From the UHGV virus genome UHGV-1497419: 64,000 nt of DNA; one strand, given 5' to 3'. The DNA comes from a virus. The position numbers and the translations under genes are program-made. How positions within the stretch are numbered: position 1 is the first letter of the stretch; every line of letters starts with the position of its first letter. The notes under the pieces are model-generated. The model saw nothing but the letters and a program-made list of their open reading frames with translations. It did not search any database and was not told the origin of the DNA. Positions 39,303 to 50,447 of the stretch are shown here, in pieces.

Positions 39303-47318
<8,016 letters not shown>

Positions 47319-47319
<1 letters not shown>

Positions 47320-47558
47320 TACATTTTTCCTGCTCTTCTAAGTTCGTTGTAAGCAATTTCCTCTTTATACGACCTCTGAATCTCAAGAAATTGTCTCAAT
47401 GATAATAAATCAGAGAATGTCATAGCAAAGAGTTGGTCAAGTGTTTCTTTACACCCTTCCATACCATAAATAGCAAGCACAAATTTCATCTCGTCTGCTT
47501 CTTCATAGGTTGCCTCTACAGCAGCATCAGTTAGTGGTGTCTGTAGAGTGTTACCCAT
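47319..47558 (-). CDS. Tail assembly chaperone, frameshift extension ORF
   Basis: 79-aa ORF in the -1 frame relative to the upstream chaperone. Confidence 0.45.
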
Positions 47559-47560
47559 GT

Positions 47561-47959
47561 TTACTGAGAAGTTAGGCTTTTGAAAATGCTTGCTTCGAAA
47601 AAACTTCCGAAGTTTGCCTCCAGCGCAAATGCTAAGTAATCAATAAACTCACCGTAGTTTGCTTGGAAGTACGTATCAATATTAAGTGGGAAGTCGTCAA
47701 CAGTTGCCCCTTGAAATAATAAGGTAGCCATCTCTTCAAGGTTAATTTCTTCAATTCTGTCAAAACAAGCTTCAACAAGTTCTTTAAATGGAACCATTGG
47801 AGCTTCTTTCTTACCCTTGTCAGTCAGACTTGATAGCATCTGTGCAAAAGTTGGAACAACAATTTTACCCAACTTCATAGACATCTTAATACCATCTCTT
47901 GCCCCAAGCAGAATGATATTCACTTTCTTACCGTTAATTACTCTAGATTCTGTTTTCAT
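47561..47959 (-). CDS. Tail assembly chaperone
   Basis: 132 aa; position between tube and tape measure; slippery heptamer near 3' end. Confidence 0.5.
   Translation of the reverse strand: MKTESRVINGKKVNIILLGARDGIKMSMKLGKIVVPTFAQMLSSLTDKGKKEAPMVPFKELVEACFDRIEEINLEEMATLLFQGATVDDFPLNIDTYFQANYGEFIDYLAFALEANFGSFFEASIFKSLTSQ
47597..47603 (-). promoter_or_regulatory. Candidate -1 programmed ribosomal frameshift site T_TTT_TTC
   Basis: On the minus strand the codons read AGT TTT TTC (S F F) about 60 nt before the chaperone stop; a -1 slip runs without a stop into ORF 47319..47558. Confidence 0.45.
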
Positions 47960-48032
47960 TGTGATTCCTTAATACTTTTAAAAGAAACAAAAAAGGGGAA
48001 GACCTTTTAAAGTCTCCCCCTTATAGGATTTA

Positions 48033-48479
48033 TTAAACACTTGACGCTGGAATTGTAGAAGTGTAGTCTAACTTCTCACAACCAAAAATCCAAGTTTTAG
48101 AGTTCTGGTCACGACCAAGTTCAATCTGCGGTAATTCCTGCAACCAAGCATTAATACCAGTTGCCAGAACAGAGCCTGATGGGTCGTAGATTACGAAGTT
48201 AGAAGAGATATCTTCTTCAAGTTCCATATTGTCTTGTTTAGCTTGAATTGCAGAAAGCATCTGGTTAGAGAGAGAAGTCTGCATTAACTCAATCTCAATA
48301 GTACCTGTCTTGTCTGCATTTCTTGTCAGAGCAACTTGACCACCTGCACCAACAACTGGTGTCACAAGTGGTGATGTTCTCTGTAGACGCAAGAATGAAT
48401 CTGGGGCAAAGCCTTCAATGGCAATACCATTCCAGCTACATACAACGTCTTTAGGGGAATATTGCTGATACATAGCCAT
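48033..48479 (-). CDS. Tail tube protein
   Basis: 148 aa; between sheath and chaperones. Confidence 0.5.
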   Translation of the reverse strand: MAMYQQYSPKDVVCSWNGIAIEGFAPDSFLRLQRTSPLVTPVVGAGGQVALTRNADKTGTIEIELMQTSLSNQMLSAIQAKQDNMELEEDISSNFVIYDPSGSVLATGINAWLQELPQIELGRDQNSKTWIFGCEKLDYTSTIPASSV

Positions 48480-48494
48480 TCCAATTTACCTCTA

Positions 48495-49847
48495 TTATTC
48501 GTAAGCCACTGTACCTTTCAAGTCAACATCCAAGATAGCCCCTGCTAAGATACCTGCGAAGGTAACATCTTTCAGGATACGAGCTTTCTTGTCTGCCAAA
48601 GCAACTTGAGAGGCTTTAGGAACATTAACTGTGTAAGATGACAGGAAGTTTCTGTTGACTGCTCTTTGTAGAGAGGTTTCAATGACTTGACGAATACGGG
48701 TAATACCAGTATCATCATAAGTAATCTTACCACCCTTCTGGTTAATTAGCAAGTCTCTCAGAGAAGTTTTCAGGTCTGATTCTAACCAGTCAACGCCACG
48801 GACGATATCAATCCATTCCCCACCAGAAGTAATCCCTCTACGAACCACTGGAACACCACCATCAAGGTCAATAAAGTTACAGTGACGTACATCTAAAGCA
48901 GACTTCTGAATACTTGTCAGAGGTCTCTGATTAGATGGTTGTAGAGAAGCTGCTACACCAGTTAGCTGAGCATTACCCCAAGCAATTGAACCTGCATCAT
49001 ATGGAGCACCATAAGCAATGTATGCCATCTCTGGATAGTCTTCTGCTGCTGCGTGATGCCACAAGCAAACTGTACGAGTGTACATATTCTTAGCAAGCTG
49101 TGCTGGAACATCATTTGCACTGGCTAATTCTGTACCTTGCAGGGCTGTTACATCGGAGTTAGCTGTAAAGAAGATTTTCTTGCGAGCCTGAATCTCAGAA
49201 GCCATTGCTAAGACAAACTGTTGAGTTCTGTCTTCTGCTGCAATGAAATACCAGTCATTAGAGTAAGCTTCGATAGCTGCCAGAGCAGTTGATGCTGTAT
49301 CGGCAGTTGTACTTGCAATATACACAGTCTGTGCTGTAGTTGTTACTTTCACAAAGTCATTATCACCAGCTTTGGTAATAATCATTGTGGCAGAGCCATT
49401 GCTACCAGTTACGTTCACAGAAACCTTATCTTTGATTGTTGGGTCAGCTTCAATCTGTGTTTTAAACTGTTGCAACACGTTTTCAGCAGTGTCTTCAGCT
49501 TGTGCTGTATACTGATATGGTTGAGAAATTCCACCGCCAGCAGCTACAGTAATTGAGTAGTCTGTACTTTCAGCAACGGCATTAGGAATTGATACAGTGT
49601 ACTGCATAGCACGTCTACCAATATAAAGCTGAGTTACTTTAGGAGTCTGACTCCAAAGTTGTTTAGCAGCCTTATATGCAGCAGTATTCTCATCGAAATC
49701 TTCAGCAACTTCAGTTAAGGAAGTGTAACCACGTACTCTTTCTTCAAAATTATCTGTTGAAGCTAAGAATAGTGGCAAACCAAAACCTTCTCTTGTAGTT
49801 CCTGCGGTGTTCAATGTAATATCTACATTAACAATTGGATTCCACAT
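48495..49847 (-). CDS. Tail sheath protein
   Basis: 450 aa; upstream of tube. Confidence 0.5.
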   Translation of the reverse strand: MWNPIVNVDITLNTAGTTREGFGLPLFLASTDNFEERVRGYTSLTEVAEDFDENTAAYKAAKQLWSQTPKVTQLYIGRRAMQYTVSIPNAVAESTDYSITVAAGGGISQPYQYTAQAEDTAENVLQQFKTQIEADPTIKDKVSVNVTGSNGSATMIITKAGDNDFVKVTTTAQTVYIASTTADTASTALAAIEAYSNDWYFIAAEDRTQQFVLAMASEIQARKKIFFTANSDVTALQGTELASANDVPAQLAKNMYTRTVCLWHHAAAEDYPEMAYIAYGAPYDAGSIAWGNAQLTGVAASLQPSNQRPLTSIQKSALDVRHCNFIDLDGGVPVVRRGITSGGEWIDIVRGVDWLESDLKTSLRDLLINQKGGKITYDDTGITRIRQVIETSLQRAVNRNFLSSYTVNVPKASQVALADKKARILKDVTFAGILAGAILDVDLKGTVAYE

Positions 49848-50447
49848 TTATTTTACCCCTTTGGAGTCTACATCTAGATGGATAGTATATTCTGGTGGCT
49901 CTTGTCCTTCTTCATAAACCAACTCACCATCAACAATGACACGCTCAATAATACTTCCACGTTCATCTTTCAGGACTGAGTTTTTTACAAGAGTTACAAC
50001 AAGAGGTGCAGAATTTTCGAAATCTGTATTGAGATAAGTGTAATCATTTGGGATTGCTCCAGTGTCTAGTACTGTAGCTCCTGTTTCTTCAAGGATTAAA
50101 TCTCTGACTGAACTCATCTCTAATCTTTGTTTAAGCTCAAGCATAATACTGTGAGCACCTTTACCATTTACCGTAATTAATACAGGAATCTGAAAAGCAA
50201 TTCTGTAGCAAACTACATCATCCTCAACAAACTTATCAAGAACCCAACCATAAGGTGTTGCGGCATCTTGACAATATACGGTAATAAATGGCTGGTCAGG
50301 TTTTAAACCTTTGTCATTTGAGTTATCAGAAGGGTAAGCTCTAATTACGTTTGGTCTATTATTTTTATCACGAGCTAATCTGTGACCAATAACATCCACT
50401 AAGGTTCTAACTAGACCTTTTTCAAGTTCTGCTGTTTCTAACTGCAT
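49848..50447 (-). CDS. Head-tail joining / neck protein (by position)
   Basis: 199 aa. Confidence 0.3.
   Translation of the reverse strand: MQLETAELEKGLVRTLVDVIGHRLARDKNNRPNVIRAYPSDNSNDKGLKPDQPFITVYCQDAATPYGWVLDKFVEDDVVCYRIAFQIPVLITVNGKGAHSIMLELKQRLEMSSVRDLILEETGATVLDTGAIPNDYTYLNTDFENSAPLVVTLVKNSVLKDERGSIIERVIVDGELVYEEGQEPPEYTIHLDVDSKGVK

Follow-up and report, generated by a model that had tools for sequence, protein, structure and literature searches.

The tail assembly chaperone locus on the minus strand of the analysed viral sequence (a single stretch of 64,000 nt, hereafter the window) very probably encodes a chaperone of the G/GT type, in which ORF1 and the adjacent ORF2 would be joined by a −1 ribosomal frameshift to give a short G form and a long GT form. 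The assignment draws on the anatomy, protein family and gene order of the locus, on the conservation of a slippery heptamer and of both reading frames around it, and on the lack of an independent start signal for ORF2. A −1 frameshift of the tail chaperone is already known in Felix O1-like phages and, judged from sequence comparison, the chaperone frameshift described here is a real, strongly selected and known instance of a textbook mechanism. What is new, in a modest way, is a candidate family-wide cassette composed of a Shine-Dalgarno (SD)-like element, a spacer of 13 nt, and U_UUU_UUY.

Anatomy and gene order of the chaperone locus

A megablast comparison of positions 45000-50000 of the window matched 298 phage records, nearly all of them Felixounavirus or other Ounavirinae, with Escherichia phage ECML-1 as the closest match (99.0% over the full length). 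On the basis of these matches, the source of the window is assigned to Felixounavirus, as a virulent, Felix O1-like myovirus with E. coli or Salmonella as its host. Profile matches (Pfam and PHROG) give the minus-strand gene order sheath, tube, ORF1, ORF2, and tape measure, and the presence of the sheath gene indicates that the tail is contractile. The features of the locus are as follows.

48495..49847, minus strand: tail sheath gene, 450 aa (Pfam DUF3383, E=1.1e-21; phrog_205 tail sheath, E=1.2e-123)
48033..48479, minus strand: tail tube gene, 148 aa (Pfam KPP10_Orf10, E=3.2e-7; phrog_280)
47561..47959, minus strand: ORF1 (132 aa, 14.8 kDa), from which standard decoding yields the 'G' form of the chaperone
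47617..47621, minus strand: SD-like GGAGG within the codons CTG GAG GCA, 13 nt 5' of the heptamer, proposed stimulator
47597..47603, minus strand: slippery heptamer T_TTT_TTC, 0-frame AGT TTT TTC (S119 F120 F121)
47561..47603, minus strand: dual-coding overlap, with the 0-frame G tail FFEASIFKSLTSQ up to its stop and the −1 frame T start FFRSKHFQKPNFSVN
47319..47597, minus strand: 'T' extension of 92 codons in the −1 frame, starting with CGA (47597-47595), ending with TAA (47321-47319), and including ORF2
47319..47558, minus strand: ORF2, 79 aa, with its ATG 2 nt after the ORF1 stop (TAA-AC-ATG)
45091..47319, minus strand: tape measure gene, 742 aa (Pfam TMP_3, E=2e-17; phrog_4036)

ORF1 is preceded by the SD sequence AAGGA (47970-47966, dG −6.1), and its C-terminal end is ...LEANFGSFFEASIFKSLTSQ, followed by the stop. 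Its residues 9-124 of 132 match positions 1-124 of the 127 in the Pfam profile PF21822, Phage_TAC_15 (full name 'Phage tail assembly chaperone protein, TAC'), with E=2.8e-19 and 70.3 bits against a gathering cut-off of 22; it also matches the tail assembly chaperone family phrog_1613 (E=2.6e-48). The T extension, represented by ORF2, matches the tail assembly chaperone family phrog_4963 (E=2.8e-55). A profile search for solved-structure homologues of the chaperone gave only chance-level matches (E at least 0.06). The counterpart of the tube gene is labelled 'tail tube protein' in the record of Erwinia phage Harbringer.

The third base of codon 119 is the first of the heptamer, and the 0-frame codons AGT TTT TTC thus set it in the X_XXY_YYZ phase, which is the correct one for tandem tRNA slippage. 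The earlier note had placed U_UUU_UUC inside the 132-aa chaperone ORF about 60 nt before its stop, had read the −1 frame without a stop into the 79-aa ORF (47319-47558), and had recognized the G/GT arrangement found upstream of tape measure genes. The heptamer is indeed there and in phase (47603-47597), the −1 frame stays open through the ORF2 ATG to the TAA, and both ORFs sit between the tube and tape measure genes; the distance, however, is 40 nt when counted from the heptamer start to where the ORF1 stop codon begins, and 33 nt lie between the two. The −1 frame is closed upstream by a TGA (47642-47640) and is open from 47639, i.e., 76 nt before the ORF1 stop.

After a slip, the ribosome would read CGA first, then RSKHFQKPNFSVN, the ORF2 ATG and its 79 codons, and the final TAA, which overlaps the tape measure ATG (47319-47317) as TAATG. 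The predicted GT fusion consists of ORF1 residues 1-121 and 92 further residues, giving 213 aa and 24.2 kDa, and at the predicted junction ...EANFGSFF is continued by RSKHFQKP.... The predicted GluC peptide across this junction is ANFGSFFRSKHFQKPNFSVNMGNTLQTPLTDAAVE. A +1 frameshift was considered and rejected, since the +1 frame closes after 6 codons.

In the window ORFs of at least 100 aa, 66 in-phase X_XXY_YYZ heptamers were counted in ~17,700 codons (0.0037 per codon), which corresponds to ~0.09 in-phase heptamers expected by chance in the 25-codon overlap. In only 1 of the 66, the chaperone site with its 92 codons, is the −1 frame longer than 35 codons or does it pass the 0-frame stop by more than 5 nt; the −1 frames of nearly all other heptamers in the window end within about a dozen codons. 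The rarity of such a heptamer and open frame in a single sequence is suggestive, and the comparative data appear decisive.

Heptamer and reading frames across relatives

The locus was compared with 12 GenBank loci of cultured phages, which represent five Ounavirinae lineages, one unclassified Ounavirinae phage, and two Vequintavirinae. These include Felixounavirus (UAB_Phi87, finno, and Mushroom), Mooglevirus (Maleficent), Suspvirus (SUSP1), Kolesnikvirus (phiEa21-4 and Harbringer), Yersinia phage P778 (not assigned to a subfamily in its record), Pectobacterium phage Arno162, and, with an ORF1 identity of 26%, the Vequintavirinae Av-05 and phiTE. An in-phase T_TTT_TTC is found at the aligned position in all 12 relatives, and the −1 frame opens shortly before the heptamer and runs 92-124 codons past it. 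The chaperone alignment has only eight invariant columns, and the two Phe residues encoded by the heptamer belong to them.

At the nucleotide level, the stretch 47614-47574, comprising the heptamer and the next 23 nt, is the only one that blastn aligns between the window and the Erwinia phages. A variability scan over 28 distinct Felixouna-, Susp- and Mooglevirus sequences has its minimum for the locus at 47614-47570, with 1-2 variable columns per 30 nt vs. 9-14 elsewhere. We read this dip as the signature of a dual-coding stretch with a recoding signal.

Two sets of loci from uncultivated phages were collected from IMG/VR. The first (80 loci, 23-100% identity) was obtained by a motif-based scan via the FF peptide, and the second (69 loci) was ascertained by a narrow T-domain motif alone; ascertainment by the FF peptide thus applies to the first set and not to those derived by tblastn or from the T domain. 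NNT TTT TTY is present in each of the 80 first-set loci, ending in TTC in 73 cases and in TTT in 7. Before the Phe codons stands a Ser or Cys codon, variously AGT, TCT, or TGT, which is T-final in 80/80 loci, and in each of them the −1 frame continues past the 0-frame stop, with 76-123 open codons. The IMG/VR loci, the cultured phages, and the window together form 25 clusters at 70% identity, among them contigs of 62-65% GC in which TTT accounts for only 10-35% of Phe codons. Given the codon usage of each locus, the joint probability of the heptamer over the 25 clusters is ~1e-21, a value that treats lineages as independent and so somewhat overstates significance. In the T-domain set, T_TTT_TTN occurs in 64 of the 69 loci, A_AAT_TTT in 2, and a U_UUU tetramer (a run of T5) at the homologous spot in 3; none of the 69 loci is without a slippery motif. 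The earlier note also called the G/GT arrangement conserved, and two phage subfamilies together with dozens of uncultivated lineages indeed retain its heptamer and open −1 frame.

The form of the heptamer agrees with what is known of slippage in E. coli, where H_HH.U_UU.Y heptamers are among the efficient ones (Sharma et al., PMC4066793) and U_UU.U_UU.C is used in IS elements (PMC4066793). In the A site, U_UUC ranks above U_UUU in E. coli, a ranking that the retention of TTC fits (PMC4066793).

The flanking stops of both frames tightly bracket the shift site: some lineages have a −1 stop 0-9 nt ahead of the heptamer, and others have the 0-frame stop only 27 nt behind it. The −1 peptide immediately after the site is kept as RSKHFQKP in Ounavirinae, as HERRFRKP in Av-05 and, in many of the uncultivated lineages, as RxxRYWxP. 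Across the family the C-terminal T module is homologous, MTFSDLLSLRQFLEIQ aligning with WSLDDVxRANALLDM. By these comparisons, both frames are under protein-level constraint, and since −1 residues are conserved upstream of any start codon, translation must enter the −1 frame at the heptamer.

Candidate stimulatory elements and the probable route into the −1 frame

The GGAGG element would form an anti-SD duplex with a dG of −9.3 kcal/mol, a value that only 3 of the 63 window start sites surpass. Within CTG GAG GCA, the Glu codon is GAG and not GAA in 20 of 25 clusters vs. 10.1 expected (P ~2.5e-5), and in the T-ascertained set GAG is present in 27 of 28 clusters vs. 10.7 expected, often as GGAGGUGA; the two counts are partly dependent, as ~7 clusters are common to both sets, and lineages are treated as independent. 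An internal SD sequence stimulates −1 shifts from 9-14 nt upstream in dnaX and in about 56% of IS elements (Atkins et al., PMC5009743), and the 13-nt spacer of GGAGG falls inside this range. As far as sequence can tell, GGAGG therefore probably stimulates the −1 shift from the 5' side, as in dnaX.

A search for a downstream stimulatory structure, which the earlier note had also proposed, was run by folding, RNAalifold, and Rfam, and gave no stable conserved structure after the heptamer. The 50 nt that follow it fold at only −3.2 kcal/mol, 94% of windows across the locus being at least as stable, and the median percentile of folding stability downstream of the heptamer is 0.32 across 27 lineages. 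No Rfam match near significance was obtained at the locus. A hairpin at 47559-47504 (97 nt folded; z −2.8) was rejected as a stimulator because it lies 37 nt downstream, which is too far, and RNAalifold gave no consensus structure for it across Ounavirinae. A 'terminator-like' hairpin with a T-run at 47623-47607 was likewise dismissed as a chance feature: it has 6 pairs including G-U, such hairpins are as numerous as expected from shuffled sequences, and it is not kept in relatives. Strong hairpins after the heptamer do exist in some high-GC relatives. As no 3' structure was found, a low frameshift efficiency is expected.

We therefore put forward, with the balance about even, that the PF21822 family shares an ancient fixed cassette, in which an SD-like GAGG(U), 13 nt, and U_UUU_UUY are embedded in the peptide E-[AV]-N-[FY]-x-x-F-F, and in which the SD-like element, not a 3' structure, would set the G:GT ratio. 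The family takes in phages of the Felix O1-like and rV5-like types as well as dozens of uncultivated lineages, ranging from 35% to 66% GC. In the literature searched, we found no defined stimulator reported for a tail-chaperone frameshift. The cassette signal is only ~27 nt long, which suits it to dissection.

The occurrence of the shift, its low efficiency, the role of GGAGG, and the binding partners of the chaperone are what we infer for the following scheme. Most ribosomes would end at the ORF1 TAA and produce the 132-aa chaperone G. With tRNA-Phe on UUU in the P site and on UUC in the A site (47602-47597), a minority would slip one base back to UUU UUU, take CGA as the next codon, and read on through ORF2 to give the 213-aa GT; by analogy with lambda and P2, their share may be a few percent. 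Pairing of the 16S rRNA 3' end with GGAGG 13 nt upstream, rather than a downstream RNA structure, probably aids the shift. By analogy with lambda G/GT and P2 E/E+E', the tape measure protein would acquire a coat made up of many copies of G and few of GT. The T domain would then recruit the tube protein (the tail tube protein is its likely partner, like lambda gpV), and the tube followed by the sheath would polymerise to the length set by the tape measure. Both chaperone forms would subsequently leave the structure, so that neither is expected in the finished virion. Our literature search found no experimental demonstration of the fusion in Felix O1-like or rV5-like phages.

ORF2 could instead be an independent gene, translated by reinitiation at the 47558 ATG after the ORF1 TAA to yield a free 79-aa T, the heptamer being a by-product of the Phe-Phe motif. 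The TAA-AC-ATG junction favours translational coupling and may permit some termination-reinitiation in the phage of the window; two separate genes are annotated in most GenBank records, and the Mooglevirus ATG has a usable SD (dG −7.2). However, that Mooglevirus start is the only one with a reasonable SD. The 47558 ATG of the window has none (dG +0.7, the median of 63 window ORF starts being −6.0) and is the weakest start of the structural block, from 58577 down to 35036, in which all genes have an SD of −3.7 or better. No ATG precedes the conserved T residues in Kolesnikvirus, phiTE, L040, and Arno162; the first ATG, GTG, or TTG is T-codon 56 of 94 in Kolesnikvirus and T-codon 64 in phiTE, and P778 has only a TTG. 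Nor does a by-product of Phe-Phe account for a codon choice that keeps T_TTT_TTY even in high-GC genomes, for a conserved −1 peptide between the heptamer and the ATG, or for a −1 frame that is always open from the heptamer on. Independent expression of ORF2 is thus most unlikely.

Transcriptional slippage, in which RNA polymerase would add one U in the U6 run so that a fraction of the mRNA encodes the 213-aa fusion in a single frame, leads to an identical protein product, and the homopolymeric T6 run, extended to T7 or T8 in many relatives, is compatible with it; the GenBank genome CL1 (OK040806) even has T7 and a fused ORF. The documented cases in bacteria, though, involve about 9 A or T in a row (PMC5009743), compared with which T6 is short. 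A change of TTC to TTT would lengthen the run, yet 73 of the 80 loci keep TTC, in line with the ribosomal preference for U_UUC over U_UUU. The run is, moreover, always in the X_XXY_YYZ phase, its extra T being supplied by a preceding AGT, TCT, or TGT, and the conserved SD-like element lies within the 9-14 nt spacing that is specific to ribosomal −1 shifts. We regard slippage of the polymerase as very unlikely to be the main route. Mere coincidence, with a functionless heptamer and open −1 frame and with ORF2 unexpressed or irrelevant, might be entertained given the ~0.09 heptamers expected in the 25-codon overlap, but it is effectively refuted by the conservation of the heptamer, the frames, and the low-variability stretch, as well as by the membership of ORF2 in a conserved PHROG family, and its probability is negligible.

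Relation to known frameshifting systems

The combination of an X_XXY_YYZ heptamer with an SD-like sequence 9-14 nt upstream is shared by the locus with E. coli dnaX and the cassettes of IS elements. In contrast to the window, where no 3' structure was found, dnaX has a strong 3' stem-loop and an efficiency of about 50%.

The locus resembles lambda G/GT (Levin, 1993; Xu, Hendrix and Duda, 2004, 2013, 2014) in where it lies with respect to the genes for the major tail and tape measure proteins, and in a −1 shift close to the 3' end of G. The division of labour proposed for the window is likewise that of lambda, with the tape measure as the binding partner of G and the tube or major tail protein as that of T, a G:GT ratio of ~30:1, and gpG and gpGT absent from mature virions (PMC5009743). 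The differences are that lambda is a siphovirus with a G_GGA_AAG site, that its proteins are not detectably related in sequence to those of the window, and that the window has an SD-like element 13 nt upstream.

The E / E+E' system of P2 resembles the locus in its contractile tail and in a chaperone gene just upstream of the tape measure gene. According to a published account of P2 (PMC3931495, citing Christie et al., 2002), the likeness extends to a second ORF in an overlapping −1 frame with no ribosome binding site of its own, and to a run of six T. The P2 site is T6G, whereas that of the window is T6C; the proteins have no detectable sequence similarity and belong to different Pfam families; and the shift of P2 was demonstrated experimentally, whereas that of the window is predicted from sequence.

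The closest parallels are found in the Felix O1-like phages themselves. According to the genome announcements of Michonne and Moogle, which cite Xu et al. 2004, the tail assembly protein is made with a −1 translational frameshift (PMC4591319, PMC4319497). The fusion predicted for the Citrobacter phages Maleficent, Michonne, and Mordin (Mooglevirus) is exactly the deposited 212-aa protein AYR00813.1/YP_009177317.1, annotated as a joined CDS, and an equivalent fusion is deposited for Citrobacter phage Moogle (YP_009145710.1, Mooglevirus). The 213-aa fusion sequence of the window itself was absent from the protein collection searched. In its nearest relatives, ECML-1, UAB_Phi87, and finno, two genes or a 'hypothetical protein' are annotated, which we take as an annotation gap and not as a biological difference. 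The same applies more widely: most of the ~300 Felix O1-like GenBank genomes list two genes or 'hypothetical proteins' where one frameshifted chaperone belongs, and in Erwinia-phage records the T region is blank or split into spurious ORFs. The locus reinforces the view that the G/GT strategy extends to a large group of therapeutically used myoviruses, and it offers a clean example of a recoding site that is frozen at both the nucleotide and peptide levels over a great evolutionary distance and accompanied by a probable SD-type stimulator. The nearest known counterpart is that of Salmonella phage Mushroom (Felixounavirus), whose joined CDS 'tape measure chaperone' (AJF40599.1/YP_009600435.1, 213 aa) is reproduced letter for letter by the site-specific fusion prediction; gene, heptamer, junction, and the length of 213 aa are all the same as in the window, the protein sequence is nearly identical, and the fusion of the window matches Mushroom DNA at ~96% (tblastn).

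Gene junctions flanking the chaperone and its neighbours

Three features lie on either side of the chaperone locus and inside the tape measure gene that follows it:
47983-48022, minus strand: strong intrinsic terminator in the gap separating the tube and chaperone genes, with a 13-bp stem, AAGGGGGAGACTTTAAAAGGTCTTCCCCTT, then TTTTTGTTTCT
47317-47321, minus strand: TAATG, where the T (-1) frame ends and the tape measure ATG overlaps its stop codon
47026-47032, minus strand: A_AAA_AAG within the tape measure gene, spanning codons 96-98 (GCA AAA AAG) in phase

A "terminator" feature is annotated at the tube-chaperone gap in some GenBank relatives. If termination at this site is partial, the chaperone and tape measure would be expressed at a lower level than the sheath and tube. 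The stop codon overlapped by the tape measure ATG is that of the T frame and not that of G, and the same 2-nt offset between T stop and tape measure ATG is found in Susp-, Moogle-, and Yersinia-phage relatives. In E. coli, no heptamer is more prone to shifting than A_AAA_AAG. Within the tape measure gene it is followed by a stop in the -1 frame after 5 codons, and it is not retained in Suspvirus, Mooglevirus, Kolesnikvirus, and others (e.g., GGT AAG AAG or AGG GCT). The occurrence of this heptamer in the tape measure gene is probably incidental.

Fused, split, and probably misassigned chaperone records

The slippery site of the Felixounavirus Escherichia phage CL1 (OK040806.1, positions 420-1061) contains T7 rather than T6, and G and T consequently form a single 213-aa ORF, which is annotated as one ordinary CDS. 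The T7 run is either an error in sequencing the homopolymer or natural; in the latter case CL1 would be a GT-only variant devoid of free G. A tblastn search with the 213-aa fusion as a query matched Salmonella phage GE_vB_BS (MG969407.1) in one unbroken piece at only 65% identity, with three places in this record, which may contain a further copy of the chaperone locus that is fused or rich in errors.

The region of the T domain (1270-1505 in both loci) is left without annotation in Erwinia phage phiEa21-4 and is cut into two short spurious CDSs in Erwinia phage Harbringer, since it lacks a start codon; both records need a joined frameshift CDS. The 132-aa chaperone WP_252560994.1, which belongs to the Felixounavirus cluster of the window, was deposited as a Staphylococcus hyicus protein from a 47.6-kb contig, and most likely is a contaminant from an enterobacterial phage in the S. 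hyicus assembly.

RNA hairpins in the vicinity of the shift site

One further element is located downstream of G:
47504-47559, minus strand: hairpin CUCUACAG...CUGUAGAG with flanking pairs, sequestering the ORF2 ATG

The 97-nt segment containing this hairpin folds at -24.5 kcal/mol (z -2.8), and a comparison across Ounavirinae with RNAalifold gave no consensus structure for the hairpin. Four high-GC IMG/VR loci from distant members of the family (L072, L062, L081, and L051) have very stable hairpins (-20 to -27 kcal/mol) that begin 0-7 nt after the heptamer, whereas the window has no such hairpin; therefore, the stimulators may differ between lineages within one chaperone family.
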